A stretch of 64,000 nucleotides of DNA from Candidatus Aenigmatarchaeota archaeon (GTDB lineage: Archaea > Aenigmatarchaeota > Aenigmatarchaeia > GW2011-AR5), in the NCBI GenBank assembly GCA_016187335.1, contig JACPJW010000001.1:853978-917977 (forward strand). Reading direction: 5' to 3'. The translations under genes and the position numbers were made by a program. The notes under the pieces were generated by a model that had not been told where the DNA came from, did not search any database, and worked only from the letters and a program-made list of their open reading frames with translations. This document shows positions 38,644 to 52,906 of this stretch, one piece after another. The first letter of the stretch is position 1. Every line of letters begins with the position of its first letter.

Positions 38644-38647
38644 ATTT

Positions 38648-38671
38648 GAAACTTTGCTTCTCCAAAGTTTC
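38648..38671. repeat. B-type hairpin (GAAACTTT-N8-AAAGTTTC) in the intergenic spacer between 38643 and 38697
   Basis: Perfect 8-bp inverted repeat, a member of the AACTTTT/AAAAGTT hairpin family seen elsewhere in the window. Confidence 0.55.
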
Positions 38672-38696
38672 ATCAAAAGAGACTAGTGGTGAATAA

Positions 38697-38888
38697 ATGA
38701 ACGTAAATATCTTGTTTGCAGTATTCATGGCTGTCCTGCTTGTGCTGTCCGTGTTCCAGACGATGCAGATAACAAGCATAAAGAGCGAGCTGAAAACAAA
38801 AATATCTGCCTCGCCGTCTGCCGCATCAAGCAGTCAAAGCCAGGGAAGCACGGGCTCCAGCAGCTCCGGAATGGTCGGTGGGTGCTGA
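38697..38888 (+). CDS. small single-TM protein with Ser-rich tail ending in SGMVGGC
   Basis: 63 aa. Shares the C-terminal GMVGGC-stop with the upstream gene at both amino-acid and nucleotide level (ggaatggtNggNggNtgctga). Stop overlaps the next start (TGATG). Confidence 0.4.
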   Translation: MNVNILFAVFMAVLLVLSVFQTMQITSIKSELKTKISASPSAASSSQSQGSTGSSSSGMVGGC

Positions 38889-39400
38889 TGATAGCCTTCT
38901 TTGCTTTTTTTATTATTTTTTTGCTTTCGCTGGCGCAGAAATCTTTCGCCCACTGCCCGCTGTGCGTGGCTGCAACGGGCTCTGTGGTGGCTGCATCAAG
39001 GGTAATGGGAGTTGACGATGCCATAACCGGAACGTTCGCGGGAGCTTTCATAATATCGACAGCATTGTGGACGGACAAAATGCTTTCAAAAAGAAAAGTC
39101 CATCTGCCTTTGCAGCCATACCTGCTGTCGGCGCTATTCATTACAATGACATTCGCAGGGTTTTACCTTTTCGGATTCGTCGGGACCGAGCCGGGATTCC
39201 TTAGCATAATGGGGATCGAGAGGCTCTCTTTTGGCATCATTGCCGGAAGCTTAATAGTCCTGATTTCGTATGAAGCTCACAACTTTTTGAGAAAATCGAA
39301 CAGCGGCAGGAATCACATACCTTTCCAGGGAATTCTTGTGCCGATAATTGCTCTGGTCATTTTTGACGTGCTGATGTACGTAGCAGGTGTGTTCGGATGA
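38888..39400 (+). CDS. integral membrane protein with HCPLC motif
   Basis: 4-5 TM segments and a CPLC pair at the start of the first TM (AHCPLCVAATG). Candidate thiol/metal-handling membrane protein. Confidence 0.45.
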   Translation: MIAFFAFFIIFLLSLAQKSFAHCPLCVAATGSVVAASRVMGVDDAITGTFAGAFIISTALWTDKMLSKRKVHLPLQPYLLSALFITMTFAGFYLFGFVGTEPGFLSIMGIERLSFGIIAGSLIVLISYEAHNFLRKSNSGRNHIPFQGILVPIIALVIFDVLMYVAGVFG

Positions 39401-39822
39401 AGCCGCAGAAAAATAATAAGGGAAATGAGGTTAGAAGGAGAAAAACCGTAGGTTTTTCCTCCTCTAAAGGCGATGTAACGAAGGCGCAGGACCTCGCGCT
39501 CGCAGTCACGAACCTGATAAGCCTTGAGGAGCACCTTGCCTTCACGGCAATGAAGACAGGAAACAGCGACTTTCACGAGATGGCTAAAGCAGTGAGAAAG
39601 ATAAGAATCATGTGCCTGCGCAACCTGATAGGCGAGCCTGCGGGCGAGTTATGGTGCTCGTCAAAGCACGCGCTGTCGGCCATGATGCGTTTGTTTGAGG
39701 TCGCGAGCAAGGAAGAAGGCAAAAAATGCGAGGAATACATGAAAGCTGCGTTCGATCTGTACCAGCTGTTCTGGCTTTTCAAGGAGATAGGAAATGATGG
39801 AACTAAAACTAAAAAGGCTTAA
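39397..39822 (+). CDS. hypothetical protein
   Basis: 141 aa soluble ORF with conserved Cys (CLRNL, WCSS, KKCEEY). No recognisable family. Confidence 0.35.
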   Translation: MKPQKNNKGNEVRRRKTVGFSSSKGDVTKAQDLALAVTNLISLEEHLAFTAMKTGNSDFHEMAKAVRKIRIMCLRNLIGEPAGELWCSSKHALSAMMRLFEVASKEEGKKCEEYMKAAFDLYQLFWLFKEIGNDGTKTKKA

Positions 39823-39858
39823 AGCAAAATTAAGCAAAGCGGTAAAAAACGCGCTGCA

Positions 39859-40290
39859 GTGCTGCTACGAGGAGTGAACAAACTTTTCAAAATGGTGATA
39901 AAATTCATGAAGAAGATATACCTTGCACTTGCTGTATTTCTGGTCGCCGCGCTTGTCGCAGGAGTTGTCATAGCATTTCCCAATAAAAATGCGGTTCCGG
40001 CGTATGCAACAAGGCATCCCCTGATAAAGGAAGCCTACATGTTTTCAGTGGACAGCCCCGAAGCACTTGACGGCGTGAACTGCTACTGCGGCTGCATGCA
40101 CCACCCTCATGACGGGCGCATTCATGCCCGCGGGCTGCTTGACTGCTTCAGGACAGCAGACGGCGGCTTTGACCGGCACGCGAGTGAGTGCGACATGTGC
40201 ATCAAGGATGCACTAGAGGTCAAGCAGATGACCCAGCAGGGAAAATCACGCGATGAAATAAGAAGCTACATAGACGGAAAATACGCCTGA
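39859..40290 (+). CDS. PCYCGC-motif domain protein (membrane-anchored)
   Basis: Signal anchor, then VNCYCGCMHHPHDG...CDMC. The CYCGC motif defines the PCYCGC family of unknown function. Confidence 0.5.
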   Translation: MLLRGVNKLFKMVIKFMKKIYLALAVFLVAALVAGVVIAFPNKNAVPAYATRHPLIKEAYMFSVDSPEALDGVNCYCGCMHHPHDGRIHARGLLDCFRTADGGFDRHASECDMCIKDALEVKQMTQQGKSRDEIRSYIDGKYA

Positions 40291-40292
40291 AA

Positions 40293-40360
40293 GAAACTTT
40301 TCCAAAAAGTTTCATCATTTGCGAAGAAACAAAGTTTCTTCGAAATCCCGAAGAACTTCG
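40293..40360. repeat. three consecutive hairpins immediately after the 40290 stop
   Basis: gaaactttt-cca-aaaagtttc (40293-40313), cgaagaaac-aaa-gtttcttcg (40322-40342), and cgaag-aa-cttcg (40349-40360). Confidence 0.55.
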
Positions 40361-40440
40361 CTCTTCGAGGAAAATGGTAGACCTTCTTAGAGGTCTTCAA
40401 TCAAAAATAAGAATCCAAGGTTTGCTTTCCATCTTGATAG

Positions 40441-40908
40441 ATGATTGTTATGAAAAAAACGGGGAAAAAGAACGGCAAAAGTATCTTTGGTTGGCTGGGT
40501 TCAGCTTCAGGAAGCGGCGCGATAGCGGGCGCCCACAACGTATGCCATGCCCTGTGCCAGGGCTTGGTTCTTTTCTTGGCGCTGTTCGGGATAGCCGTCT
40601 CGTCAACCGCCCTCATGTTTCTGGAGGACTACGCGGTGTATTTCTGGTCAATGGGACTGTTTTTCCTTTTAATCTCGGCGTATTTTTTTGCTGTCAGGAA
40701 ACAGGGCTCGCAAAAGCTGCTGCTCGCGAACTCGGGAATACTTTTGGCAGGAATACCTTTCAGGCAGTTCGAGGCATTTTCGGCGGCTTTTCTTGCCGCG
40801 GGCGGGGCGATGATAGCTTTCAGTGTTTTCCTTTATTTGAACGAAAGAAATTTTCTTGTATTTGGAAATAGGAACAATGGAGGGCGTAAGAATGGCAAAA
40901 GTGGCTAA
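40441..40908 (+). CDS. integral membrane protein with CxxxC motif
   Basis: 155 aa with 4 TM segments. NVCHALCQG lies at the first TM. Confidence 0.45.
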   Translation: MIVMKKTGKKNGKSIFGWLGSASGSGAIAGAHNVCHALCQGLVLFLALFGIAVSSTALMFLEDYAVYFWSMGLFFLLISAYFFAVRKQGSQKLLLANSGILLAGIPFRQFEAFSAAFLAAGGAMIAFSVFLYLNERNFLVFGNRNNGGRKNGKSG

Positions 40909-41134
40909 GGAAAAAATATTCACGTATGTATTGGCAGGAGCGATAGCAGTGCTCGTCGCAGTTCTTTTATGGTCGCTGCTCCAGCCGGCGCCTGATTACT
41001 ACGGCGCCAGCTATGAGCGCGCGAAGCAGAGCAAGCTGTCAGACAAATGCGCGACGCCGTCTGGCTACACCGATGCGCAGTGGCGCGAGCATATGGGCCA
41101 CCACCCGGACCAGTACGCGGAATGCTTTAAGTAA
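40877..41134 (+). CDS. small TM-anchored protein with C-terminal Cys/His motif
   Basis: Start uncertain (40856/40877/40892). C-terminus CATPSGYTDAQWREHMGHHPDQYAEC. Confidence 0.35.
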   Translation: MEGVRMAKVAKEKIFTYVLAGAIAVLVAVLLWSLLQPAPDYYGASYERAKQSKLSDKCATPSGYTDAQWREHMGHHPDQYAECFK

Positions 41135-41169
41135 ATTTTTGAATAATTTGAACTGCGGAAAGGATAGGA

Positions 41170-41787
41170 ATGAAAATGAAAAAAGCCGCATATATTGCCG
41201 CAGGGCTTATTCTTGTTGCTATAATCTACCTTGCATTCTTCACCAAGCCTTCCTATGAGCCGGGAGAGATGGAAGAGCACATCAGGGGAAACCACAACGC
41301 TCCCATTGTCATCGTGGAGTTCAGCGACTTCCAGTGCCCTTACTGCAGGGCCGTGCAGCCGGCGCTCAACCAGCTGCTAACGGAATACCCCGATGATGTC
41401 AAGCTGATTTACCGGCATTTCCCGCTGCCTTCGCACCAGTACGCCATGAAAGCCGCGGAAGCCTCGGAATGCGCAGCCAACCAGGGAAAGTTCTGGGAAT
41501 ATCACGACATGCTTTTCCAGAATCAGGAGCGGCTTGACGTAAATTCGCTGAAAAGTTACGCAAAGCAACTTGGATTAAACACGACCTCTTTCAATGCGTG
41601 CCTTGACAGCGGAGCAATGCAGCAACGCATAGAAATAATCGTAAAGAACGGCGCGGAGAAAGGCGTTACAGGGACGCCGACATTCCTGATAAACGACAAA
41701 ATGCTGTCAGGCAACCAGCCCTACAGCGTGTTCAAAACATCTGTGGACGAAGAGCTGAAAAAATTAAATGAAACCCGGCGAGTCTAA
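41170..41787 (+). CDS. DsbA-like thiol:disulfide oxidoreductase (thioredoxin fold), membrane-anchored
   Basis: Signal anchor plus a CPYC active site in FSDFQCPYCRAV, and a DsbA-type second domain. Confidence 0.7.
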   Translation: MKMKKAAYIAAGLILVAIIYLAFFTKPSYEPGEMEEHIRGNHNAPIVIVEFSDFQCPYCRAVQPALNQLLTEYPDDVKLIYRHFPLPSHQYAMKAAEASECAANQGKFWEYHDMLFQNQERLDVNSLKSYAKQLGLNTTSFNACLDSGAMQQRIEIIVKNGAEKGVTGTPTFLINDKMLSGNQPYSVFKTSVDEELKKLNETRRV

Positions 41788-42128
41788 TGATTTGCATCGC
41801 GGCTTTGATAGTCCTCGGCATTCTCGGCATTTTTTCCGCATATCATCGGAAGCTCGCCAGAGAAGCCTTTGACTGCGTGCTGAACAGGATAAAGCTGCGC
41901 GAGTGCGAGGCGGGCTTTGACCGCAGGATGAAGATGGCTGTTTTCAATAAGCTTTCATGGTCGCCGCGCCTTGCACGGCTCTGGTATGACCACTTTGAGC
42001 TTGTTTCGTGGGCTTTCGTGATTTTGTTTTTTGCAAGCCTGTATTTCGCGGCTGCCGGAATCTACAACCTTATAACATACGGGACATGCGACCCCGCGAC
42101 GGGGCAGTGCATTTTGAAATTGAAATAG
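41787..42128 (+). CDS. small membrane protein with conserved Cys pairs
   Basis: 113 aa with two TM segments. CVLNRIKLRECEAG and a C-terminal GTCDPATGQC. Start overlaps the dsbA-like stop. Confidence 0.4.
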   Translation: MICIAALIVLGILGIFSAYHRKLAREAFDCVLNRIKLRECEAGFDRRMKMAVFNKLSWSPRLARLWYDHFELVSWAFVILFFASLYFAAAGIYNLITYGTCDPATGQCILKLK

Positions 42129-42130
42129 AA

Positions 42131-43306
42131 TCAGTACCTTCTTCTGCCGAAGCGCCTGTGAAATCCCCTTTCCTGATACCTTCTTTTCACGAAAACCTTC
42201 GGATAGTCCCTTTCGACAATTTTTTCTATGTCAGAAATGAAACGCATTATGCGCCTGAAAGATTCGTGGTCCTTTTTTGACAGGAGGGTTATTGCCTTGC
42301 CCTCTCTGCCTATGCGCGCTGTCCTGCCTATCCGGTGCGTGTAGCCGTCGGCATCGTTTGGGACATCGTAATTGAAGATGTGCGTGACGTTTCGTATGTC
42401 CAGGCCGCGCGCCGCGACATCCGTGGCAACAAGTATATGCGGCCTGCCCCGGTGGAATCCCTCCATGACATGCATTCTCTGCTGCTGGGTCATGTCGCCG
42501 TGTATCGCTTTCGCCTCAGCGCCGTTCTGTTCCAGCGCGTCGGCGACAAAATCCGTTTCCCTTTTCGTGTTACAGAAAATTATTGCCAGAGAAGGCTTTT
42601 CCTTCTTTATCAGGTGCAGCAGGAGCGATATCTTGTCATCTTCGCGCACGTCATAATAAAACTGCTTCAGCTTGTGCTTCGGCACGCGCAGGGCGACTGA
42701 AATCCTGACAGGCTCGTGCATGTAATTCCTTGCTATTCGCATAACATCGTCGGATATCGTCGCCGAGAACAGCATGGTCTGCCTTTTCCGGGGCAGGGCG
42801 CTGATGATGCGCCGTATGTCGTCGATGAATCCCATGTCAAGCATGCGGTCCGCTTCGTCCAGGACAAGTATTTTTAGCGACGAGAAATTCACGGTTCTTC
42901 TGCTCATGTGATCCAATATTCTGCCGGGCGTTCCGACAACTATTTCGGATGACCGCAGCGCGTTTATCTGCGGCTCTATGCCCACGCCGCCGTAAACCTT
43001 CGCGACGTTCAGCTGCATGTATTTCGAGAATTTTCTCATCTCGTTGGCAACCTGCTCGGCCAGTTCCCTTGTCGGCACAAGGACAAGCGCCTGCACGCCG
43101 CGCCGCGCCTCAATGGAATGAAGCATCGGGACGCCGAAAGCAGCTGTTTTGCCGGACCCCGTCATTGACTGTGCCACGACGTCATTGCCGCGCATCGCTA
43201 TGGGTATAACTTTTTCCTGTATTTCCGTCGTCTTGACGAAGCGCATATCCTTGAGCGCTGACAGAACTCTTTTGTCAATATTCAGCTTTTCAAACATGAT
43301 AATCAA
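42131..43306 (-). CDS. deaD: DEAD-box ATP-dependent RNA helicase
   Basis: Q motif (FVKTTEIQ), motif I AQSMTGSGKT, PTRELA, DEAD (VLDEADRMLD), SAT, and HRIGRTAR. Confidence 0.85.
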   Translation of the reverse strand: MIIMFEKLNIDKRVLSALKDMRFVKTTEIQEKVIPIAMRGNDVVAQSMTGSGKTAAFGVPMLHSIEARRGVQALVLVPTRELAEQVANEMRKFSKYMQLNVAKVYGGVGIEPQINALRSSEIVVGTPGRILDHMSRRTVNFSSLKILVLDEADRMLDMGFIDDIRRIISALPRKRQTMLFSATISDDVMRIARNYMHEPVRISVALRVPKHKLKQFYYDVREDDKISLLLHLIKKEKPSLAIIFCNTKRETDFVADALEQNGAEAKAIHGDMTQQQRMHVMEGFHRGRPHILVATDVAARGLDIRNVTHIFNYDVPNDADGYTHRIGRTARIGREGKAITLLSKKDHESFRRIMRFISDIEKIVERDYPKVFVKRRYQERGFHRRFGRRRY

Positions 43307-43327
43307 TTGGATGGTAGGTTTATATCT

Positions 43328-43589
43328 GCAGAAAGCATAGCTTTCTGAGATTTCAAAAAGCTTTGCTTTTTGTAAATTCTGTTAAGATGGGGAGGAAATC
43401 CCGTTTTTATTGCATGAAATGCAGTCAATAAGTTCATAATACTTCTGCATTCGCTCAAAAAGCGAAGCTTTTTGGCGTGTCAGAAAGCTCTGCTTTCTGA
43501 ACATATGCAACTCGAAGAAAGCGAAGCTTTCTTGAGTCTTCGGAAAGCTATGCTTTCCTGAAGAAAATACTACGGGCTTTAGCCCGTAG
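43328..43589. repeat. tandem array of 7 short palindromic hairpins (A-type: xRAAAGC-N3-GCTTTYx) in the deaD upstream/leader region
   Basis: cagaaagc-ata-gctttctg (43328-43346), caaaaagc-ttt-gctttttg (43353-43371), caaaaagc-gaa-gctttttg (43456-43474), cagaaagc-tct-gctttctg (43481-43499), aagaaagc-gaa-gctttctt (43515-43533), ggaaagc-tat-gctttcc (43542-43558), and ctacgggct-tt-agcccgtag (43570-43589). Base changes are compensatory between arms. Confidence 0.6.
43561..43589 (-). terminator. GC-rich hairpin followed (on the minus strand) by a U-tract: candidate terminator of the 43642-44643 gene
   Basis: Minus-strand reading gives ctacgggctaaagcccgtag tattttctt, 50 nt after the stop. Confidence 0.3.
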
Positions 43590-43641
43590 ATATTTATCCG
43601 CTGCTTTGAACGGAAAATCCACTTTTCGCCCCGTTTTGCTT

Positions 43642-44643
43642 TTACCCGAACGTGAACGCGAAAATCTTCAGCCCGTCCTCCGTGACGATTTTTATCTCCC
43701 TGGTGCCGTGGTTTCCTTTTACGAGATTGTACATATCGGGATGCGTTACGACGACAAAGCTCTTTCCGCCCTCGGTGACGACATCATCGCCCGCTTCTTC
43801 TTTCTTCAGGGGCTTGTCGTTGAGCAGTATTTCCGCTTTCGCTTTGCTGGAGTCCATCACGGCGTTGACTTCCGAGGCCGTGAATTTCAATGTGAGGTGA
43901 CCTTTCTTCTTTTCATGCTGCAGGAACTCGTCGTGCTGCGACCAGTCGCCGTCAAGGTAGATTGTGTCATTGCGGTGGTGCTTCGGGTCTGCGTAGGAAC
44001 CGCAGTCGCCGGGCATGCAGACGATGCCGTTGCCCAGCCCGGGATTGCGCAGCAGGCCGCAATACAGTTCGGGTGTTATTTTCAAAGCGGAAGGGCGGGG
44101 CTCGCTCCCAAGCTTGGCCGGAAGATCATCCTTGGTTTTTCTTTTTATTCCGAGCAGTTCGACAATCTTTCCCTCCGTTTCCCCGTAGGCGCCCTCGCCG
44201 GCGTGGTCGTAAACAATAACGCCTTTCCTGTCAACAAGAAGCTTTCTCGGCCACCATCTGTTTTTGTATCTGTACCATGTTTTGTATTCGCTGTCAACCG
44301 CTACGGGGTAAGCAATGTTATACTTTTTCACGGCGCTGCGCACATTTTCAGCGTCCTTCTCAAAATCAAACTCCGGCGTATGCACGCCGATTATCACCAA
44401 GCCTTTCTTTGAGTACTGCTGATGCCACTGCTTCAGGTATGGCAGCGTCCTCTGGCAGTTGACGCATGAATACGTCCAGAAATCTATCAGAACAACCTTG
44501 CCCTTTAGTTGGCTGATTTTCAGCGGCTTTGAATTGAGCCATGCCACAGCGTCTATTTCAGGCGCCTGTTTGCCCATCCATCCCTGTGAAAGCAGTCTTT
44601 CGAACATGATTAACACCGGAAGAAAAGCAGAGCGATCCGGCAA
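43642..44643 (-). CDS. thioredoxin-like (TlpA/ResA-type CxxC) oxidoreductase with a C-terminal beta-rich domain (DipZ C-terminal-like)
   Basis: FWTYSCVNCQRTLP is the redoxin active site. An extra domain of about 170 aa with conserved Cys (YCGLL, CMPGDCGSY) follows. Confidence 0.6.
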   Translation of the reverse strand: MPDRSAFLPVLIMFERLLSQGWMGKQAPEIDAVAWLNSKPLKISQLKGKVVLIDFWTYSCVNCQRTLPYLKQWHQQYSKKGLVIIGVHTPEFDFEKDAENVRSAVKKYNIAYPVAVDSEYKTWYRYKNRWWPRKLLVDRKGVIVYDHAGEGAYGETEGKIVELLGIKRKTKDDLPAKLGSEPRPSALKITPELYCGLLRNPGLGNGIVCMPGDCGSYADPKHHRNDTIYLDGDWSQHDEFLQHEKKKGHLTLKFTASEVNAVMDSSKAKAEILLNDKPLKKEEAGDDVVTEGGKSFVVVTHPDMYNLVKGNHGTREIKIVTEDGLKIFAFTFG

Positions 44644-44684
44644 AAGGTTCGTCTGCTCTTTGTTTGAAAAATTTAATCCTCCTC

Positions 44685-44843: not shown

Positions 44844-45036
44844 TAACTTTGTGATTAAGGGTTTAAATTCCTGAAAACAAGAAGAGGATGATTATAGGGA
44901 AATGGGGATAAGAAGAAAATCTGTAATATTTTTAATTAAGGAAATGAGGGTACAAGCAGTTTGATAAATTATATAAAATTTGAAATAGTTTGTCAAACTG
45001 CTTGAAGGGAGAGAAACCGCAAGTTTCCCTTTTGAT

Positions 45037-45057
45037 GAAACTTTTCGGAAAAGTTTC
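45037..45057. repeat. B-type hairpin gaaacttttc-g-gaaaagtttc abutting the 5' end of tRNA-Cys
   Basis: Perfect 10-bp inverted repeat whose arms are identical to the hairpin at 40293-40313. Confidence 0.55.
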
Positions 45058-45225
45058 GCTGGGTTGGCAGATCGGCTATCTGCAAAGACCGTCGGAAAAA
45101 CGGTTGCGGATAACGCAAACCGAAGATGTGCCCGCCTGCAGAAACCCTTTTGCACATGTAAACGTGCAAAAGCGTTTACGGAAAGCAGCGAGCGGGATAG
45201 GGGGGTTCGACTCCCTCACCCAGCT
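45058..45225 (+). tRNA. tRNA-Cys(GCA) with two introns (non-canonical intron near position 26/27 and canonical 37/38 intron)
   Basis: Acceptor GCTGGGT/ACCCAGC (7/7 bp) and D-arm GCAG-ATCGGCTAT-CTGC (45067-45083). Exon 2 CCCGC-CTGCAG (45131-45141) gives the anticodon loop C-T-GCA-G. Exon 3 from 45191 (A38, then GCGGG pairing CCCGC), variable loop ATAG, T-arm GGGGG-TTCGACT-CCCTC, discriminator T. Introns about 45084-45130 and 45142-45190. The 5' half resembles known archaeal tRNA-Cys (GCCAGGGTGGCAGA...GGCTAT). Confidence 0.6.
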
Positions 45226-46395: not shown

Positions 46396-46425
46396 GCTTC
46401 GCTGGTTCTAAATTCATGCGTCTTG

Positions 46426-47559
46426 TTATATACCGTGTTCTATGCCGTAAAGAATGGCTTCGGCCCTGCTGTGAACGCCTAATTTCTTGAAAAGAGTGCC
46501 AGCATGCGTTTCAACTGTTTTAACTTGTAATCCCATCCTTTTTGCGATCTGCCTATATGTATTTGCCTCGCCGCTGGCCAGAACGCGCAGCACTTCCTTT
46601 TCACGTCGTGTAAGAGGTTCAGGCGGGGAGTAATCATGTCCGGTGACTTGGTCCTGCCGGGATTCAAATCCATGAAAACTGCCGTTCCTTAAGAGTTCGC
46701 GGAACCTGGCGTAAACGATAAGTTGCGCTTTTTTTTCAAGACCCAGCTTTTCCATAATATGTGAAACATGTGCTTCAGCCGTCTTCACCGACATGCAAAG
46801 GCTGCCGGCAATCTCCTTGTTTCCGGTGCATACACCCTCCCCGATAAGCTTCAGGATTCTTTGCTCCATTGGGGCAAGTTTCAAAGTATTGTATTTAACG
46901 CCTTCGGGATGCCCGCGGAAATCTGCGTCTTCAGGCCTTCTGTAGACGTAGCCTATCCCGCCAACATTCATGATGTAGGGGGTTTCGGCGTCTCCGGTTT
47001 TCAAGTTAAGCGACCGGACCATTGAATCAACATCAATTTCATTCAAATGACCGTTTCCTGCTGCGTGGCTTAGTTCCTTGGGCGTCATGACAGTGCCGGA
47101 TGCCGCCAGCGCGTGCAGCAGCGACAGCTCCGGGCGCGACATTTCTCTGCGCCTGCCGCCAATCACCGCGTAATCCTCGGTCATCGTAATTTGCGAGTCT
47201 CTGTACACTATCCTTGGTTCTGCCATGTGCTTGAGCCTGTCCTGCTCAAACTTGATCCTTTCAACGTCAATCCGCATGCATACCCTCTCTCCATCTATCG
47301 GACTGATGTATCCTTGCGTCATAGCATCGTTCAAATAACTCCAAAATGTCCTGGCATCCATCCCCATATTCCTGCATTTAGCCCAAAGGGAATCTTCATA
47401 AAATATTCCGGTCTCCTGATTGGTGCTTTCAAGGGCTGCAAGAACAAGCTGCGCAAAACCGCTCATAGGGCGGTGATGCTGTTTGTTGTTTTGTCTCCTA
47501 TAGCTGAAATCATTTACTCCTGTCTGGTAAGTAATTTTTGCTCTTTTTCCTGAAGCCAT
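46426..47559 (-). CDS. transcriptional regulator with two LuxR/GerE-type HTH domains
   Basis: Two segments matching the LuxR-type HTH signature (MEQRILKLIGEGVCTGNKEIAGSLCMSVKTAEAHVSHIMEKLG and TRREKEVLRVLASGEANTYRQIAKRMGLQVKTVETHAGTLFKKLG). Confidence 0.6.
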   Translation of the reverse strand: MASGKRAKITYQTGVNDFSYRRQNNKQHHRPMSGFAQLVLAALESTNQETGIFYEDSLWAKCRNMGMDARTFWSYLNDAMTQGYISPIDGERVCMRIDVERIKFEQDRLKHMAEPRIVYRDSQITMTEDYAVIGGRRREMSRPELSLLHALAASGTVMTPKELSHAAGNGHLNEIDVDSMVRSLNLKTGDAETPYIMNVGGIGYVYRRPEDADFRGHPEGVKYNTLKLAPMEQRILKLIGEGVCTGNKEIAGSLCMSVKTAEAHVSHIMEKLGLEKKAQLIVYARFRELLRNGSFHGFESRQDQVTGHDYSPPEPLTRREKEVLRVLASGEANTYRQIAKRMGLQVKTVETHAGTLFKKLGVHSRAEAILYGIEHGI

Positions 47560-47792
47560 ATTACATGTTAAAACACAATGTTTTTAAATCCATGGCGTCT
47601 GGGACGATTTCCCATGCGACCTAAGCCTGCGCTGTTGTACAATCCTGCCCAGCTCTTGGAACAAAATTGCTAATCTGTTAACCCTTTTAAGCGCGCGGAA
47701 ACAAATTATCAAAGACATCAAAGACGGAATGAATTAGCTGGAATTTAACTGCGCGGGCTTTCCTTTCCGTTTTGATATGGAGGTTGTGAAAA

Positions 47793-48377: not shown

Positions 48378-49727
48378 GTGAGAGCGATGAAAAGGACGCA
48401 CAAAGGAACTTTTCAGGAAAGTTCCACCAGAACGGAGAGGGCACAACCAGAACCCCTTTCAGGCGAGAAGACGATTTACGAATCAATCGCCTCAACGTTT
48501 TCTGATTTCTTCAGCCTTCTCGGGGGGAGCTCCGATGTCCTGAGGCAGAGCCTCACGGCAATAATGCTGAGCATTGCAACGGACGTGTTTGCAGGCGTGC
48601 TGCTTCACGGCGCCGAGGAGACGCTGGCGCTTCTGCCGGGGCTTATCGTTCTTGTTCCGGCGGCCATAGGAATGCGCGGAAACATATTCTCGTCCATGGG
48701 CTCGCGCCTGGGATCTGCCCTCCATCTGGGAGCTGTTGACAGGCTGTCCCTTGACGACAGGACCGTGAAGAACAATATTTACGCCCCATTGAGCCTCAGC
48801 ATCATTTTTTCTGTCCTTTCCGCTTTCATCGCGAAAGCCGTGCTCCTTCTGGCAGGGTTCCCGAGCATAAGTGTTTTTTCGCTTGTCCTGATCTCCTTCA
48901 TCGGCGGCATGATATCAAGCATCCTCCTGCTGATAATCACCTTCGGCATTTCCTTCCAGTCATACAGGCGCGGATGGGATCCGGACAACCTTACGTCGCC
49001 TATGCTGTCAGGACTTGGCGACCTGTTCACGATACCGGCATTGCTCATCGCGGCGGAATTCGTCATTGGCCTGGGCGGCAGGACCCAGATTGCCGAGGTT
49101 TTTGTGCTTTCAATTTTCATTCTCAGCGTCCTTTTCTTCTTCAAGGCCGGGATGTCCAGGGAAGCGGTAGCGGGCAGCTACAGGGGGATAGTTCTTCAGA
49201 GCGCTCCCGTCATCGCGGTGGGCCTTCTGCTCGATTCTTTCGCCGGCCTTTTCATCCACATAAAATTCGAGAACTTCGCGACCCTCGGGTTCCTGATTGT
49301 CATGCTTCCAGCTTTCCTGGAAGAGGGCGGGAACATAGGGACTATACTCGCCTCCCGGCTTGGGACGAAGCTGCATCTGGGCACTTTGGACCCCGAGCTT
49401 ACGATATCAAAGGAAATAAAGAAGGAATTCTTCAACTCTTACTTCCTTGCCATGGTTATATTCCCTGTAGTTGCCGTGGCTTCGTACTTCACGGCAAGGA
49501 TACTTTCGATACCTGTCTTGCCGCTTGCGCAGGCCGTGTACATCTCCGTATTCGCGGGGCTTGCGCTGACGACGCTGATCATCATACTCAGCTTCTCGAT
49601 TTCCGTCATTTCCTACAAGCACAACCTGGATCCTGACAACGTTACGATACCGCTGATAACGAGCACAGCCGACCTGGTGGGCGCGTTCTCGCTTCTCGCA
49701 ACCGCAAGCCTGTTCGGGATAATTTAA
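48378..49727 (+). CDS. MgtE/SLC41-family divalent cation transporter (duplicated MgtE TM domain)
   Basis: Two internal repeats, each with PGLIVLVPAAIGMRGNIFSSMGSRLGSALHLG-like and DPDN(L/V)T motifs, and 10 TM segments. Confidence 0.7.
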   Translation: MRAMKRTHKGTFQESSTRTERAQPEPLSGEKTIYESIASTFSDFFSLLGGSSDVLRQSLTAIMLSIATDVFAGVLLHGAEETLALLPGLIVLVPAAIGMRGNIFSSMGSRLGSALHLGAVDRLSLDDRTVKNNIYAPLSLSIIFSVLSAFIAKAVLLLAGFPSISVFSLVLISFIGGMISSILLLIITFGISFQSYRRGWDPDNLTSPMLSGLGDLFTIPALLIAAEFVIGLGGRTQIAEVFVLSIFILSVLFFFKAGMSREAVAGSYRGIVLQSAPVIAVGLLLDSFAGLFIHIKFENFATLGFLIVMLPAFLEEGGNIGTILASRLGTKLHLGTLDPELTISKEIKKEFFNSYFLAMVIFPVVAVASYFTARILSIPVLPLAQAVYISVFAGLALTTLIIILSFSISVISYKHNLDPDNVTIPLITSTADLVGAFSLLATASLFGII

Positions 49728-49747
49728 GAAATAATATGTTCTTTGCT

Positions 49748-49844
49748 CAGAAAGCAAAGCTTTCTGGCAACTCAAGAAGCTTATGCTTCTTCGAGTTTTC
49801 CGTAGACGATTTTCGTTTTGATGCAACTTTTCTGAAAAGTTGCA
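49748..49844. repeat. hairpin cluster between convergent transporter and mscL genes: two A-type and one B-type
   Basis: cagaaagc-aaa-gctttctg (49748-49766), aagaagc-ttat-gcttctt (49774-49791), and tgcaactttt-ctg-aaaagttgca (49822-49844). A T-rich tract (tctatttcttttcatcttt) follows. Confidence 0.55.
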
Positions 49845-49850
49845 AAGGGT

Positions 49851-50147
49851 CTATTTCTTTTCATCTTTCGCGACCTTCTTCACGATAATGAAGACCACAA
49901 GCGCGATAATCAGGAAGTTTATCACTGCCGCAAGGAACGCGCCCCATCCGATGACAACAGGCCCTATGGACAGCTTTGCGGTCTGCCACTCCCCGCCGGG
50001 AATGAAAAAAGTTATCACGGGCATGATTACGTTGCTTACCAATGACTGCACCAGCGCCGTCAGGGCAAGCCCTATGATGAACGCCACTGCCAGTCCTACG
50101 ACTTTGTATTCCTGCAAAAATTCGCTGAACTCCTGCGCAAAGCCCAT
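49851..50147 (-). CDS. mscL: large-conductance mechanosensitive channel
   Basis: 98 aa. VVGLAVAFIIGLALTALVQSLVSNVIMPVI is the MscL TM1 signature, and the C-terminus is charged. Confidence 0.8.
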   Translation of the reverse strand: MGFAQEFSEFLQEYKVVGLAVAFIIGLALTALVQSLVSNVIMPVITFFIPGGEWQTAKLSIGPVVIGWGAFLAAVINFLIIALVVFIIVKKVAKDEKK

Positions 50148-50493
50148 AAAAATCCTTATCCACCCAAGAAGCAGGAAGAAGACCTAAATTCTCATAGGAG
50201 GCGAAAGGTTCTTAATGGTTTCAAGGCATCAGAACAGCGCGTCAACCTTCACTCCGTGCTCTGTTAAATCATCTGTTGCAAAAACAGGCGTTAAACTTCT
50301 GTTGCTGGACTTTTTCTCTGGATGGCGGTCTGAACGAATAAGCGAACTTATATAGCCCTTACTCTGTCGTCTTTTGTGATTGGTTAAATGATTGCGGTAA
50401 ATTATTGAATATCACTTTTGGCTGTTCTTGTTGTTTTCTTGCTGTTGAGGGAAGGGCTTTTAAAGTTAAGTTTGAAAAAATAAAATATAAGAA

Positions 50494-50781
50494 GTGTCTA
50501 AAATGGAACAGAAAGAAAAAGACAATATAATTAAAGAAATAAAAAAAAGAGCACCTCATCCTTCATGCCCTATTTGTGGCAATAAGCAATTTTCTTTGGC
50601 AGATGGCTATCATAACAAAAACCTGCAAGATAAATTATCTGGCGGAATCATTTTTGGTGGCAAAGCTATACCAACTGTTTGTGCAATATGTAGTAATTGC
50701 GGTTATATTGCAGAATTAGCCGTTGGTATTCTTGGATTTTTACCAAAAAGTGAGGGAAATGAAGATGAAAAACAAAAGTAA
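50494..50781 (+). CDS. small zinc-ribbon protein (AT-rich block)
   Basis: CPICGN ... CAICSNCG gives a four-Cys ribbon. About 30 % GC. Confidence 0.4.
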   Translation: MSKMEQKEKDNIIKEIKKRAPHPSCPICGNKQFSLADGYHNKNLQDKLSGGIIFGGKAIPTVCAICSNCGYIAELAVGILGFLPKSEGNEDEKQK

Positions 50782-51133
50782 AAAGCCGGCGATAAGCGAT
50801 ACCCCACTTAAAGTATATGATGTCGCAAAGAATGAAGGTTTATTTCGTATAACAGAAAACCAATTAGCTTCGGTATTACGTAAATCTCATGAAACAAAAA
50901 GTTATAAAGAAAGTTTTTTCTTTTCATTAAGTATCGTAATAGGAATTAGTCTTGTATTTGGAACAACTAATTTTATAGATGCTTTAGGTGTTCCATCAAC
51001 TTCTTGGCAAGCGGTTTTTATAATACTTTTTGGATTGGCTTTTTTATGTATTTGTTATTTTGGTTATAAGTGGTATACCAATAGATGTTCAGTAGATGAA
51101 ACCATAGAAAAACTAAAGGAAAATAAAATATAA
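50759..51133 (+). CDS. small membrane protein (AT-rich block)
   Basis: Two TM segments after a basic N-terminus. Overlaps the upstream zinc-ribbon ORF by 23 nt. Start at Met 50759 (TTG 50723 is also possible). Confidence 0.35.
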   Translation: MKMKNKSKKPAISDTPLKVYDVAKNEGLFRITENQLASVLRKSHETKSYKESFFFSLSIVIGISLVFGTTNFIDALGVPSTSWQAVFIILFGLAFLCICYFGYKWYTNRCSVDETIEKLKENKI

Positions 51134-51182
51134 CAATAGGATTTTAACAAGAGATGAATTTCACTGAAAAACAACAGTTCGT

Positions 51183-51923
51183 TTAACAGAGCATCACTCC
51201 GCTTTCCTTGAAAACTGCAGCCAGCTCGTCCCTGGTTCTTTCATAAAACTCCTTGCCCAGCTGCAGCTTATGCTTTTCCGCTATGCTTTTCCACAGCTGC
51301 GGGTAATTCAGCTTGTCTATGAACGCGCTGTCTATATTCGGCGAGACCGCGTTTCCTACTGCTGAAGCGTCCATCGGCAGCATCGGCCCTATGAACGCAT
51401 AAGTCCGCAGCCCTGCATCCTTGAGCTTTTTCAGCGTTTCTATCCTGACCCTGAAAGGCGGCGTGAACGGCTCAAAAATATTTTTTATTTTGTCGTTGTC
51501 CGTGGTGATGCTCACGCCGACGGTGCATTCCCTGAACTGCTGAAGCAGGTCAATATCGCGCATGACCAGAGGGGAACGTGTAAGGATAGTTATCGGAAAA
51601 TCATGCTTCAGCAGGATTTCCAGGCACTTCCTTGTCAGCTCGTATTTCTTTTCAAACGGCTGGTAAGGATCAGTAACGGAAGAAAGCATTACAACGCCCT
51701 TTTCTGCTTTCTTTATTTCCCTTTCCAGAAGCTCCGGTGCGTTCACCTTTACATCCAGATATCCGCCCCATTCCTCGTTGGGATGGAACTTGCGGATAAG
51801 CAGCTGCGCGTAGCAGTAAGTGCAGCCGAAGCCGCAGCCCATGTAGCAGTTCACGCAGTAATCCGTGATTCCGCTTTTGCTGAGGATGCTTCTAGCCTGA
51901 ACTTCGCGGATTTTCAGCGGCAT
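51183..51923 (-). CDS. radical SAM protein of the SplB-like (DNA repair photolyase) family
   Basis: CVNCYMGCGFGCTYCYA Cys cluster near the N-terminus. 246 aa. Confidence 0.65.
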   Translation of the reverse strand: MPLKIREVQARSILSKSGITDYCVNCYMGCGFGCTYCYAQLLIRKFHPNEEWGGYLDVKVNAPELLEREIKKAEKGVVMLSSVTDPYQPFEKKYELTRKCLEILLKHDFPITILTRSPLVMRDIDLLQQFRECTVGVSITTDNDKIKNIFEPFTPPFRVRIETLKKLKDAGLRTYAFIGPMLPMDASAVGNAVSPNIDSAFIDKLNYPQLWKSIAEKHKLQLGKEFYERTRDELAAVFKESGVMLC

Positions 51924-51984
51924 GATAAGAGTAAGCCGGGAAAGTTAAAAAAGAAGCAGGGTGAAAATCATAGCGCGCAAGTGA

Positions 51985-52650
51985 TTACGAAGCCGGCACG
52001 TCCCGGTAAAGAATGTCCAGGGCATCGGTGATTTCCGGCGTGATTTCCTGCGAATAAGCGTTGAACGGGAACATCACGCTGTGGGAATTGTCGTTGTGGG
52101 CGAAGCCCATTACGTGCCCTATCTCGTGCATTATCTGGACAAGGTTCTCGGCGCCCCCGAAAGTGGGCTCCAGTTTCATTTCTCCTCCCGTTATCAGGCT
52201 GTAGTCGTCATACTGGTATCCGAACGGCCTTGCCTCGCCTATCGTGTCGCTTGTCAGGTTCGTGACGAGCTTTATGGTTATCCCGTCCTCCGGTTTCTGG
52301 GATGCCTGCACGAACATTACCCTTCCTTTCGTGGCGTTTTCCCACCTGTCAAACGCTGTCCTTACGTTCCTCATCGTCAGCTCGTACTTGTATTCGTTGA
52401 TTTCCGTGTCGTTGTACACGTAGTAAGGCATCGGCGATTTCACTATCGGGAACTTAACGAGAAGCGGGTGCTTTATTTCCGTTGCCGGCGGCTTGTAGTT
52501 CTCGTAGTCAAAGCCTTTGCTGGTTTCAAGGTTTTTGTTCTGGACGGCCTTCTCGTAGCCGTATGTTCCCTGCGTTCCCTGCGAGACGCATGCCGAAGCG
52601 AGCACGGCAAGAATTAACGCAAGCGCAGATAAGTTCCTGAAAAGTTTCAT
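51985..52650 (-). CDS. secreted metzincin-type zinc metalloprotease (matrixin/archaemetzincin-like)
   Basis: Signal peptide, then HEIGHVMGFAHNDNSHSVMFP (HExxHxxGxxH plus Met-turn). Confidence 0.75.
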   Translation of the reverse strand: MKLFRNLSALALILAVLASACVSQGTQGTYGYEKAVQNKNLETSKGFDYENYKPPATEIKHPLLVKFPIVKSPMPYYVYNDTEINEYKYELTMRNVRTAFDRWENATKGRVMFVQASQKPEDGITIKLVTNLTSDTIGEARPFGYQYDDYSLITGGEMKLEPTFGGAENLVQIMHEIGHVMGFAHNDNSHSVMFPFNAYSQEITPEITDALDILYRDVPAS

Positions 52651-52714
52651 AATAACAAATGCTGCGGTTAGATTTTAATAAGCAATCACAATAGATTAAT
52701 GAATCGTCTGGATT

Positions 52715-52906
52715 GCGTCTGTAGTCTAAACAACTTTTCTTGGAAAGAAAAATTGTATCAAAAGAATCCAAGAAAGTTGGGATAACGGTTAGGACCTCAG
52801 CCTTCCATGAAAGGCTGTCAGAAGAAAATTTTAGAAAGAAGTTTTTGACCAAACTTTTTTCTAAAAAGTTTGGCTGATGATCCGGGTTCGAATCCCGGCG
52901 GACGCA
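52715..52906 (+). tRNA. tRNA-Gly(UCC) with two introns (D-loop intron and canonical 37/38 intron)
   Basis: Acceptor GCGTCTG/CGGACGC, TA, D-stem GTCT (52724-52727) pairing GGAC (52792-52795), and D-loop AAAC[intron about 52732-52785]CGGTTA. C26, anticodon stem TCAGC (52797-52801), loop C-T-TCC-A (52802-52807), intron 52808-52871, G38, stem GCTGA (52873-52877), variable TGAT, T-arm CCGGG-TTCGAAT-CCCGG, discriminator A. Matches the archaeal tRNA-Gly pattern GTAGTCTA..GGTTAGGAC...CTTCCA. Confidence 0.75.

Follow-up and report, generated by a model that had tools for sequence, protein, structure and literature searches.

Does a short hairpin that recurs at gene ends, beside a tRNA-Cys gene and inside an intron of a tRNA-Gly gene act as a common RNA-processing or terminator signal, or is it a mobile mini-element that has also entered introns? 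A preliminary description of a 64-kb stretch of DNA from a Candidatus Aenigmatarchaeota archaeon (the window) had left both readings standing. We find that the mini-element fits best and that a processing or terminator function as a general signal is disfavoured. Logan contigs match the window at 100% identity; for the nearest relatives, protein identity is only ~60%.

The hairpin element and its copies in the window

The element is asymmetric and consists of TTTTGAT followed by a perfect hairpin, NN-AACTTTT-loop-AAAAGTT-N'N'. The flank (ATCAAAA on the other strand) is present on one side of the hairpin only; this flank and the strict orientation rule given below had been overlooked in the preliminary description. 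The core is fixed as AAC[T/C]TTT ... AAA[A/G]GTT, the two outermost pairs and the loop are variable, and the unit of ~28-32 nt comprises the flank and, directly after it, the perfect hairpin. A pattern search gave seven matches to AACTTT-N(1-12)-AAAGTT in the window against 0.18 expected from shuffled sequences, and the oriented form TGATGMAACTTT..AAAGTTKC occurred five times against 0.00 expected. The copies and their neighbours are as follows.

34733..34762, minus strand: full module CG-TTTTGAT-GCAACTTTTCTGAAAAGTTGC, in frame within the multicopper oxidase ORF 34105-35259
38648..38678, minus strand: hairpin GAAACTTTG-CTTCTC-CAAAGTTTC plus ATCAAAA, beginning 5 bases past the stop of ORF 37909-38643
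40293..40321, minus strand: hairpin GAAACTTTTCCAAAAAGTTTC plus degenerate flank ATCATTTG, beginning 3 bases past the stop of the PCYCGC-family gene 39859-40290
40322..40342, no strand assigned: the earlier 'variant' CGAAGAAAC-AAA-GTTTCTTCG, with a GAAAC/GTTTC core, without T/A tract and without ATCAAAA; doubtful member
40377..40407, minus strand: hairpin whose arms differ, GTAGACCT..AGGTCTTC, with one mismatch, then AATCAAAAA
45030..45057, plus strand: TTTTGAT-GAAACTTTTCGGAAAAGTTTC, directly adjoining nucleotide 1 of the tRNA-Cys gene on its 5' side; orientation opposite to that of the tRNA
48405..48432, minus strand: degenerate member GGAACTTTTCAGGAAAGTTCC plus ACCAGAA, at the PhoU/MgtE junction
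49814..49843, plus strand: full module CG-TTTTGAT-GCAACTTTTCTGAAAAGTTGC; mscL (49851-50147, minus strand) has its stop 7 nt from the hairpin side
52730..52763, minus strand: ACAACTTTTCTTGGAAAGAAAAATTGT-ATCAAAA directly after the exon, first bases of the tRNA-Gly D-loop intron; in sense, as intron copies typically are
52842..52873, plus strand: TTTTTGA-CCAAACTTTTTTCTAAAAAGTTTGG, 3' end of the tRNA-Gly anticodon intron, hairpin side adjoining the 3' exon; reversed

All six hairpins listed in the preliminary description were recovered at their coordinates, and the arms of the copies at 40293 and 45037 are indeed identical. That list was real but short, since 34733-34762, 48405-48425, 52730-52763 and 40377-40407 had been missed, and its variant at 40322-40342 is better regarded as a neighbouring hairpin than as a clear member. 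Three hairpins had been placed immediately after stop codons, which is correct for those following 38643 and 40290 but not for 49727, from which the 49822 copy is 95 nt away.

The copies at 34733-34762 and 49814-49843 have 30 identical bases in common, and three independent Logan contigs terminate at 49824, within this repeat. The former lies between the two cupredoxin domains of the multicopper oxidase and encodes ~7 residues (FSEKLHQ) that are missing from 13 homologues. An ATG is found 22 nt beyond the module at 38648-38678, which is identical at ~27/31 positions to a Thermococcus copy located after tRNA-Arg (L037). The copy at 40293-40321 is the first unit in a run of hairpins; at 40377-40407 only the flank, not the stem, fits the family. 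The degenerate member at 48405-48432 lies 28 nt past the stop of the PhoU/TrkA-C gene, where the MgtE ORF begins with a stretch that is not conserved.

All copies are located at 34.7-52.9 kb, i.e. in the accessory half of the window (32-57 kb), with genes for a Cu-ATPase, MCO, MarR, PCYCGC, DsbA, a sigma54-type AAA+ protein, LuxR, MgtE and MscL. The housekeeping half (1-32 kb; CysRS, eIF6, SRP54, proteasome, pur genes, exosome, TFS) contains no copy of the family. Its ~24 gene ends carry mostly plain T5+ tracts, and none of them has the module; the TFS gene ends in a T5/A5 palindrome comparable to the module. Orientation in the window is 6:3 under a monotonic GC skew and tracks the adjacent gene rather than the replication strand, the hairpin side pointing toward the gene, tRNA or exon.

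Intron-bearing tRNA genes and copies in other genomes

Two tRNA genes of the window are associated with copies.

45058..45225, plus strand: tRNA-Cys(GCA) gene with two introns, parsed manually
52715..52907, plus strand: tRNA-Gly(UCC) gene with two introns

The tRNA-Cys introns lie at ~45085-45130 (after the D arm) and ~45143-45191 (position 37/38), and the acceptor and T arms are recognisable directly in the sequence; those of tRNA-Gly lie at 52730-52785 (D loop) and ~52808-52872 (37/38). Neither gene was detected as a tRNA by default ARAGORN or by Rfam. When spliced in silico, they fold in ARAGORN into clean cloverleaves, as tRNA-Gly(UCC) and tRNA-Cys(GCA), and the predicted fold of the tRNA-Gly gene has a z of -6.8; on these predictions, both are real tRNA genes with two introns each. 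A tRNA-Pro reported at 45058 by ARAGORN -i is a misparse. The copy said to abut the 5' end of tRNA-Cys does so, ending one base before nucleotide 1. The one noted in the tRNA-Gly anticodon intron (hairpin 52849-52873) is likewise present but is the weakest member, with the flank TTTTTGAC and reversed orientation, and is predicted to pair with an upstream arm without forming a local hairpin. The first arm of the D-loop copy can alternatively pair with a third arm at 52767-52778.

An exact-pattern scan revealed more than 117 loci in DPANN, Thermococcus, methanogens and some bacteria. The TTTT of the flank was not part of the query pattern and was present in 93-98% of 85 archaeal matches. In the same 85, base-pair compensation is evident at the free outer stem pair (69 A-T, 16 C-G, none mismatched). 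The outer dinucleotides, of six pair types, are complementary in 149/154, and stems are perfect in 109/112, with Watson-Crick and no G.U pairs. The distribution is patchy, and no family hairpin was found in 137 kb of 15 unrelated archaeal control loci. Tandem arrays of direct units with variant arms occur in DPANN loci; in L020 the module is tandemly duplicated together with a tRNA 5' fragment, and in L009 a duplicated tRNA 3' end lies beside it.

At least 14 matches are tRNA introns, all reading from the exon into the hairpin and then ATCAAAA (14/14 sense), and the short ones, of 31-39 nt, are hardly more than the module. Five copies directly adjoin a tRNA 3' end, oriented as in the introns, and reversed copies at tRNA 5' ends were found three times elsewhere in addition to the tRNA-Cys copy of the window, which is matched by L045 and L072. 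In orthologous Micrarchaeota tRNA-Pro genes the module is found either in the D loop (L029) or at 37/38 (L050, L074, L104), conserved within otherwise unrelated intron sequence. A gene 3' end lies within 50 nt of the hairpin side in 17 archaeal and 14 bacterial cases, compared to 5 on the other side, and bacterial copies obey the same orientation rule. An integrase gene adjoins one Thermococcus copy (L049).

Competing explanations for the family

Scattered copies and their recurrence in many archaea and some bacteria give the family the look of a tiny mobile repeat. We tentatively favour a copy-and-paste palindromic repeat family, REP/MITE-like, that is tolerated at gene ends and forms introns in tRNA genes. 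The 30-base identity, the copy within a coding sequence, the confinement to the accessory half, the empty control loci, the tandem arrays and the shifting intron positions all argue for mobility. New copies would survive where harm is small: in spacers, just past a stop codon or the 3' end of a tRNA, occasionally and in frame in a variable protein loop, and in tRNA genes. In the latter, the hairpin directly after the 5' splice site would form the outer helix of a relaxed bulge-helix-bulge (BHB) motif, and a few bases beyond it would pair with the exon. The insertion could therefore be excised by the archaeal splicing endonuclease, whose specificity is broad, as a BHB intron with the module as its 5' part. 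The orientation bias may reflect selection against the strand with two T-tracts inside transcripts.

Several observations stand against this favoured reading. No transposase, integrase or HUH gene was found in the 64-kb window, none is enriched among the 144 ORFs adjoining archaeal copies, and target-site duplications were not seen. Selfish repeats normally co-evolve with a lineage-specific enzyme, and near-identity across archaeal phyla and bacteria is unusual for them; it suggests, rather, a cellular factor or function that is itself conserved. Orientation by the adjacent gene is also not predicted by classical single-strand insertion of the IS200/IS605 type.

Such a function is the core of a somewhat unlikely alternative, a conserved gene-end module that conserved transcription or RNA-decay machinery reads as a bidirectional oligo-T terminator/insulator or as a hairpin stabilising the 3' end. 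Transcription would be halted by the arm T-tract in the sense direction and by the TTTT flank plus the arm T-tract in antisense, and intron and coding-sequence copies would be by-products. The excess of gene 3' ends on the hairpin side agrees with this proposal, as do hairpins 0-3 nt past the tRNA 3' end in 5/5 abutting cases, stems perfect on both strands (expected if both directions matter), and a sequence kept across phyla and in orthologous introns while adjacent bases diverged. Archaeal terminators are oligo-T, and giant-virus gene ends follow a palindromic 'hairpin rule'; the module resembles both as an AT-rich palindrome with T-runs a few bases from the stop codon, and generic gene ends here have T5+ tracts at the same distance, and the palindrome at the end of the TFS gene is similar. 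Terminators are not one sequence family, however, and the fixed non-T positions of the module (GAT, GAAAC/GTTTC) are not explained by a T-tract terminator. The module is missing from most genes, among them all ~24 housekeeping ends, as well as from the control loci, and one copy lies within a coding sequence. It is also present inside presumably essential tRNA genes with T4-T5 runs: sense T5 runs occur in the presumably single-copy genes L011, L034, L050 and L078, and T5 and T6 runs in the tRNA-Gly intron of the window, so that it cannot be an efficient terminator. The commoner gene-end orientation, moreover, is the one whose sense strand has fewer T-tracts. Where it follows a gene, the module may still act like a terminator as a side effect.

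An HUH-type relative, i.e. a non-autonomous REP/RAYT or IS200/IS605-derived element whose hairpin is bound, and whose adjoining TTGAT is cut, by a transposase encoded elsewhere, appears unlikely. HUH enzymes recognise just such an architecture, a hairpin with a fixed short flank on one side. ISDra2 inserts 3' of TTGAT, and Rep proteins of the pC194/phiX174 type nick within CTTGAT; the flank recalls both sites, and a folded single-strand hairpin by a short TTGAT-containing sequence is also seen at IS200/IS605 ends such as those of ISDra2. Compensating pairs and loops of differing length are signs of a folded single strand, not of a dimer-binding site, and the spread over both domains fits families that, like IS200/IS605, move between bacteria and archaea. 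Against this, neither the window nor the surroundings of the 144 neighbouring ORFs yielded a Y1/HUH transposase (TnpA) or TnpB, and the module has no separate left and right ends. Its flank touches the hairpin, leaving no space for the guide bases of IS608-type enzymes, its stems are perfect where known REP and IS608 ends are imperfect, its arrays are direct and not inverted doublets, and its orientation follows transcription and not the replication strand.

We consider it improbable that an excised, possibly circular, tRNA intron re-inserts by reversed endonuclease/ligase splicing, followed by reverse transcription and recombination. This model predicts sense copies in tRNAs and mRNA 3' regions, in line with the sense orientation in 14/14 introns, in mostly 3' UTR-like positions and in the coding-sequence copy, and with a module found at both canonical and non-canonical intron sites of orthologous tRNAs, reminiscent of the intron transposition reported for Thermoproteales. 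Bacteria, in which the archaeal splicing endonuclease is lacking, nevertheless carry the module under its usual orientation rule. The copy abutting the 5' end of tRNA-Cys and the one in the second tRNA-Gly intron are reversed, no gene for a reverse transcriptase turned up in the window, and Watson-Crick stems without G.U pairs speak against a purely RNA-level constraint.

An operator for a palindrome-binding transcription factor of a metal/stress gene cluster would suit copies grouped among copper/redox genes near MarR- and ArsR-type regulators, but is very improbable given half-site spacings of 2 to 9 bases with co-varying outer pairs, copies after genes and in tRNA introns rather than in promoters, 33 co-directional gene starts versus 44 convergent gene ends downstream of the flank, and unrelated housekeeping genes as neighbours in other genomes.

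Relation to known repeats and tRNA introns

Palindromic repeats of Methanocaldococcus jannaschii were reportedly described by Suyama et al. in 2005. Small palindromic repeats of prokaryotes, including REP/REPIN and Rickettsia palindromic elements, have been reviewed (PMC2229807). The module shares with them short hairpins in many extragenic copies, mostly directly downstream of genes, a conserved short motif at one hairpin foot, and occasional in-frame insertion into coding genes. It differs from REP/REPIN by perfect stems of only 9-12 bp, a TTTTGAT instead of a GTAG flank, direct arrays, the lack of any RAYT-type gene seen with it and copies that form tRNA introns, and from species-specific REPs by an almost unchanged sequence across archaeal phyla and some bacteria.

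Transposition of Thermoproteales tRNA introns has been reported (Fujishima et al. 2010, cited in PMC3239211), and a mobile-element model of tRNA gene disruption was proposed for Caldiarchaeum (PMC3293823). There, too, similar introns occupy canonical and non-canonical positions, in tRNAs that may be orthologous or unrelated, the new site needs a BHB motif, and tRNA fragments are duplicated beside the insertion (here L009 and L020). No counterpart of the 1.8-kb recombinase-bearing element accompanies the module, the Thermococcus integrase at L049 being the sole exception. The Thermoproteales introns are shared within one order, whereas the shared part is here a defined 30-nt module common to several phyla, found also outside tRNA genes (gene ends, one coding sequence) and outside Archaea. 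If the favoured reading is true, the family would be a tiny mobile repeat able to found tRNA introns.

Module copies in the window

All six hairpins of the preliminary description were found in place. The pattern AACTTT-N(1-12)-AAAGTT matches the window seven times, against 0.18 expected from dinucleotide-preserving shuffles, and the matches at 34735 and 48407 had not been listed before. The aligned copies are asymmetric, with TTTTGAT (ATCAAAA on the opposite strand) always on one side of the hairpin, and the oriented motif TGATGMAACTTT..AAAGTTKC gives five matches in the window against 0.00 expected. We refer to this flank and its hairpin as the module. When the flank was searched together with any hairpin, two additional members were obtained. 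The hairpin at 40322, first taken as a variant, is without the flank and without the T/A core and is a doubtful member. The density amounts to eight to nine copies in 18 kb.

No tRNA was reported in the window by ARAGORN with default settings or by Rfam at the gathering threshold. Removal of two introns from each candidate gave clean cloverleaves for tRNA-Gly(UCC) and tRNA-Cys(GCA), in agreement with the first assignments. The practical lesson is that both genes escaped the default tRNA finders and Rfam because of their insertions. A tRNA-Pro(CGG) called at 45058 by ARAGORN -i is a misparse of tRNA-Cys.

Module copies and tRNA genes of the window
After ORF 37909-38643: hairpin begins 5 bases past the stop codon
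After the PCYCGC gene: 3 bases past the stop codon
After the PhoU-like gene: 28 nt
After mscL, a minus-strand gene: 7 nt
Inside the multicopper oxidase gene, 34733-34762: hairpin first, sense strand
First base of the tRNA-Gly D-loop intron, 52730-52763, ACAACTTTTCTTGGAAAGAAAAATTGT-ATCAAAA: hairpin first, sense strand (flank plus any-hairpin search)
5' end of tRNA-Cys: reversed, ends one base before nucleotide 1
tRNA-Gly anticodon intron: reversed, at the intron end beside the 3' exon
40377-40407: hairpin with other arms, then AATCAAAAA (flank plus any-hairpin search)
tRNA-Cys(GCA), 45058-45225: two introns, after the D arm and at 37/38
tRNA-Gly(UCC), 52715-52907: two introns, in the D loop and at 37/38

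Six copies face the end of the neighbouring gene or exon with their hairpin side; read on the sense strand, their ATCAAAA flank points the other way. The copies noticed earlier at the 5' end of tRNA-Cys and inside the anticodon intron of tRNA-Gly are both real and both reversed, and their hairpin side is likewise in contact with tRNA sequence. The anticodon-intron copy is the weakest member: its flank reads TTTTTGAC, and the predicted fold pairs it with an upstream arm and not locally. TTTTGAT lies on the plus strand in three copies and on the minus strand in six, while cumulative GC skew rises monotonically over the window, so that orientation tracks the neighbouring gene and not the replication strand.

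Other palindromes were seen near these sites. About 85 nt upstream of tRNA-Cys, a TATA-like AAATTATATAAAAT is enclosed by a 52-nt near-palindrome (44953-45004), which has 26-nt arms with 85% complementarity and includes TTTGAT. A GAAAC-CGCAA-GTTTC hairpin (45014-45028) stands just ahead of the tRNA-Cys module. Near the expected transcription start of ORF 37909-38643, a miniature GATGAAAC-TA-GTTTC palindrome comes after a canonical TATA-like box, TTATAAATA (together 37841-37873); the palindrome may represent an operator or a degenerate member of the family. The permease gene ends at 37191-37201 in TGAAACTTTTT, a stop codon fused to an apparent lone first family arm that has no partner arm.

The window belongs to a Candidatus Aenigmarchaeota (DPANN) genome bin, and all its copies lie in its accessory half (32-57 kb). 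The housekeeping half (1-32 kb) encodes CysRS, eIF6, SRP54, proteasome alpha, purine synthesis, SBDS, exosome Rrp4/41/42, diphthamide synthesis and TFS; the accessory genes, which are partly bacterial-looking, encode a Cu-ATPase, a multicopper oxidase, a MarR-type regulator, a permease, a PCYCGC protein, DsbA, a DEAD helicase, a thioredoxin-fold protein, a sigma54-type AAA+ protein, LuxR, PhoU/MgtE, MscL, a radical SAM protein and a matrixin-like protease. Several of them form a copper/redox cluster at 32013-44643 (Cu-ATPase with a YHS domain, two-domain multicopper oxidase, MarR/TrmB-type regulator, PCYCGC protein, DsbA and thioredoxin-fold protein). The best relative of the oxidase is 62-66% identical, and its named homologues include candidate-phyla-radiation (CPR) bacteria (Saccharimonadales, Yonathbacteria, Niyogibacteria), which suggests cross-domain gene exchange. 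Directly after tRNA-Cys lies a gene for a sigma54-interaction AAA+ protein (45292-46395; best NCBIfam matches NorR and RtcR), which lacks an N-terminal sensor domain; to our knowledge archaea should have no sigma54. This gene and the next one, for a LuxR/GerE-family regulator (46426-47559), look bacterial in origin. At 55719-63117 an ORF of 1973 residues is followed by one for a protein of 488 residues that has a PGF-pre-PGF domain; both products are probably large surface proteins.

Several Logan assemblies contain DNA of the window at 100% identity. For a comparison of orthologous loci the MgtE of the window was searched in metagenomes, where all relatives were at most 41% identical.

Distribution and conservation of the family

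One genome per species was scanned with the exact pattern GATGMAACTTTT-N(2-6)-AAAAGTTKC, and at least 117 loci were found. Among the matches listed, with hosts named by record title, the archaeal hosts included Micrarchaeota, Iainarchaeota/Diapherotrites, Woese-, Aenigm-, Nano-, Undin- and Altiarchaeota, Marsarchaeota, Thermococcus, Methanocaldococcus, Methanobacteriaceae and Methanosarcinales bins; the bacterial hosts included Defluviitaleaceae (many copies), Acutalibacter, Oscillospiraceae, Rikenellaceae and a CPR bacterium. DPANN genomes carry multiple copies per 8-kb locus, and head-to-tail arrays occur in two loci from other genomes (L018, L087) and in the window (40293-40407). The copy at 38648 agrees at about 27 of 31 positions with a Thermococcus copy located after tRNA-Arg. 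Exact copies were also present in very AT-rich IMG/VR contigs (L127, L131, L132 and L134; GC 18-25%, some in giant-virus bins), two of which (L127 and L131) have flanking repeats in common; possible reasons are mis-binning, chance matches in DNA so rich in A and T, or a host range that is truly wider.

The upstream TTTT, which is outside the search pattern, is present in 93-98% of the 85 archaeal matches listed. Among the matches listed, the free M/K positions form 69 A-T and 16 C-G pairs with no mismatch. The two outer positions left free on each side are complementary in 149 of 154 cases, with six pair types. Stems are perfect in 109 of 112, G.T is almost absent, and loop length ranges from 2 to 9. 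When the flank was ignored, 23 further core hairpins were found, 15 of which have TTTGAT/ATCAA on exactly one side, with near variants in most of the others. These hits show a single family with a base-paired stem, whose complementarity reflects either a constraint on a folded strand or a copying process, and not a dimer-binding site with fixed spacing.

Signs of copying were found within the window. The stretches 34733-34762 and 49814-49843 have 30 identical bases in common. Three independent Logan contigs stop at 49824, within this 30-base repeat, as expected in a k=31 assembly graph, and contig ends of the same organism also occur at 52754, in the D-loop intron hairpin, and at 52902, in the tRNA-Gly T arm (L001-L007 for the three places); these repeats break up short-read assemblies. 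The copy at 34733-34762 keeps the reading frame of the multicopper oxidase and falls between its two cupredoxin domains; in comparison with 13 homologues, the protein has seven extra residues, FSEKLHQ, exactly at the module. ATAGA[G/C]CC precedes both 30-base copies. Since in the oxidase it codes for a conserved I-E-P, the likeness of the two sites is older than the insertion, and we infer that it may represent a target preference or microhomology. No target duplication was found at the copies.

tRNA introns and gene ends

With introns allowed in ARAGORN, 15 strict matches among those listed fell inside tRNA calls, all in a single orientation; 14 lie in introns, and the remaining match (L070) overlaps the 3' end of a tRNA. 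Further intron copies were judged by eye in L052, L074, L083, L088 and L104. The intron always starts as exon|hairpin-ATCAAAA, whether it occupies 37/38 or a non-canonical site, in the D loop (L029) or the T loop (L083, L088). Short introns of 31-39 nt consist of the module and 3-10 more bases. Outside introns, five copies among the matches listed lie 0-3 nt past a tRNA 3' end in the same sense, and three, together with that of the window, lie 1-2 nt ahead of tRNA nucleotide 1 in the reverse sense. Local rearrangements were seen beside some copies, namely a tandem duplication of the module with a 15-nt tRNA 5' fragment in Micrarchaeota (L020, 4700-4830), a duplicated tRNA-Val 3' end in Methanocaldococcus (L009, 2860-3090) and a tyrosine integrase ORF running antisense across a tRNA in Thermococcus (L049, 3780-4894).

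Like archaeal bulge-helix-bulge (BHB) introns, the inserts in tRNA-Gly and tRNA-Cys of the window restore a cloverleaf when they are removed. Four introns (L030, L011, L078 and L041) were parsed by hand. They have the usual 4-bp central helix, formed by the anticodon loop with the 3' part of the intron, and 3-nt bulges, and the module hairpin starts at intron base 1 or 2, in the place of the outer helix. Seven of 13 introns have a third arm, close to their 3' end, as an alternative partner for the first arm, and the first arm of the tRNA-Gly D-loop intron of the window is likewise able to pair with such an arm. In the four hand-parsed introns the module hairpin, or its first arm with the third, is predicted to serve as the outer helix of the BHB. 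In the orthologous tRNA-Pro(UGG) genes of related Micrarchaeota the module lies either in the D loop (L029) or at 37/38 (L050, L074, L104); it is nearly identical in all four, and the remaining intron sequence is unrelated.

Protein genes also border many copies. Among the matches listed, the hairpin side lies within 50 nt of a gene 3' end in 17 archaeal and 14 bacterial cases, and the flank side in 5. The 144 ORFs nearest the archaeal copies listed matched 166 Pfam families, none of them in more than three ORFs. In Defluviitaleaceae bins (L008, L017, L025, L033, L040, L055, L057, L095, L096, L102, L106, L114 and L124) a composite intergenic repeat of about 120 nt, which recurs many times per genome and mostly separates a stop codon from the following gene, has the module as its middle hairpin. 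A GC-rich hairpin stands on either side of the module, and the one away from the stop codon, which has a T-run, looks like the real terminator.

Nature and possible origin of the module

Two explanations had been proposed, a common RNA-processing or terminator signal and a mobile mini-element that also colonised introns. We take the second as the best explanation, because presence is patchy, copies cluster in the flexible half of the window, some copies are identical and one is inserted in frame in a coding sequence, and further because of the tandem arrays, the differing intron positions in orthologous tRNAs and the adjacent duplications. This combination gives the module the look of small non-autonomous repeats; mobility itself we infer. 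Neither transposases nor other mobilising genes were found among the most frequent Pfam families of the 144 ORFs beside copies, nor was a mobilising gene found among the approximately 60 ORFs of the window. Inside tRNA genes the surviving copies would be those that a broad-specificity endonuclease can excise, and the hairpin would always lie at a splice junction because only these survive. The orientation bias may come from selection against the strand with two T-tracts (TTTT-GAT-N-AAACTTTT) within transcripts; the two reversed copies of the window weaken this idea.

Two observations suit a simple selfish repeat poorly and leave a functional role of the module as a serious rival. Its sequence is nearly the same across phyla and in bacteria, and orthologous introns conserve the module and not the neighbouring bases.

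Among known elements, REP/RAYT systems (REPINs) are also multicopy, with many extragenic palindromes of 20-40 nt, and they carry a GTAG-type tetranucleotide at the 5' foot of the hairpin; the conserved one-sided flank of the module is TTTTGAT. Their replicating units are inverted doublets, whereas the module forms head-to-tail arrays. The cognate RAYT is a Y1 HUH transposase gene, usually flanked by REPs; no RAYT-type Pfam match was seen in the approximately 60 ORFs of the window. Membership fails on the doublets and, for the ORFs covered, on the RAYT, and the flank is a different one. Miniatures of IS200/IS605 have distinct left-end and right-end hairpins, insert 3' of a fixed tetra- or pentanucleotide and keep a uniform orientation to the replication strand. 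In the module TTGAT is fixed beside a single hairpin, there are no separate ends, and the 6:3 orientation follows the neighbouring gene; this membership fails as well, on the strand behaviour.

The distribution speaks against a general processing signal or oligo-T/intrinsic terminator. The module is at none of approximately 24 housekeeping gene ends of the window, and no family hairpin was present in 15 unrelated archaeal loci fetched with MgtE (137 kb). The usual archaeal terminator is a plain T5+ tract, and most of these housekeeping genes have one within about 15 nt of the stop codon. The module would terminate weakly, to judge from the T5 runs that lie within tRNA genes presumed to be essential. 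The TFS gene ends in a palindrome with 17-nt arms (30303-30337; GTAGACCCTTTTTCTTT/AAAGAAAAACCGTCTAC); this T5/A5 hairpin has the look of a bidirectional oligo-T terminator and is not a family member.

A promoter was considered, since the palindrome is BRE/TATA-like and three abutting tRNAs have TTTTGAT at about -29 to -22 relative to their nucleotide 1, and was rejected. Canonical TATA boxes stand farther upstream in all three, distances to downstream start codons vary, and beyond the flank the matches listed have 33 co-directional gene starts versus 44 convergent gene ends, which gives no promoter signal. A minihelix mimic for RNase P/RNase Z (hairpin with AUCA for ACCA) is attractive in being valid for both bacteria and archaea; it leaves the reversed copies and the patchy distribution unexplained, and its cleavage chemistry is unsuited to RtcB-type splicing. 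A viral or plasmid origin was rejected: there are only 10 exact matches in 2.9 million viral contigs, some of them in giant-virus bins, and plasmid and phage BLAST matches are at chance level only.

Integron attC sites (55-140 nt, with R''/L''/L'/R' boxes, extrahelical bases and an integrase-linked cassette array) resemble the module only in the AAC...GTT pair and the gene-end position; the module has a perfect hairpin of 21-27 nt, and the window was found to contain no integrase. A box C/D sRNA (RUGAUGA C box, CUGA D box and guides) is rejected because, with UGAUGA on the flank strand, no conserved CUGA follows the hairpin, and a hammerhead (CUGAUGA, stem II, GAAA, stem III and cleavage triplet) because GAUGAAAC is contiguous and no GAAA follows the stem. 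No tRNA has the module on both sides, as split-tRNA leader/trailer pairing would demand, and the defining parts of K-turns, H/ACA RNAs and parS/ORB/dif-like sites are absent. An Rfam search with the module gave no match, and a full-text literature search for its sequence gave nothing relevant.

The module appears to be a kind of small palindromic repeat, unusual in its reach and in its link to tRNA introns. Its nearest counterparts are small palindromic repeats, REP-like ones among them, and the transposed tRNA introns known from Thermoproteales (cited in PMC3239211), and the mobile-element model for tRNA gene disruption (PMC3293823) is also close.

We put forward, as a tentative and rather doubtful proposal, that a conserved 30-nt module (TTTTGAT with an AACTTTT hairpin) moves in and between genomes of DPANN and other archaea, and into some bacteria, by means other than an element-encoded transposase, and that its insertion into or beside tRNA genes is a general way in which BHB tRNA introns are founded at canonical and non-canonical positions. 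The proposal bears on the open question of the source of archaeal tRNA introns and of their appearance at new positions, on which we know of prior evidence only from similar introns within one order and from one population study. The module is defined and searchable by sequence, and it occurs past the ends of genes, within one coding region and at intron starts in many tRNAs across phyla. If it is mobile, intron gain becomes directly testable, and if the proposal is true, archaeal tRNA introns would have in the module a tractable founder element for their origin and spread.
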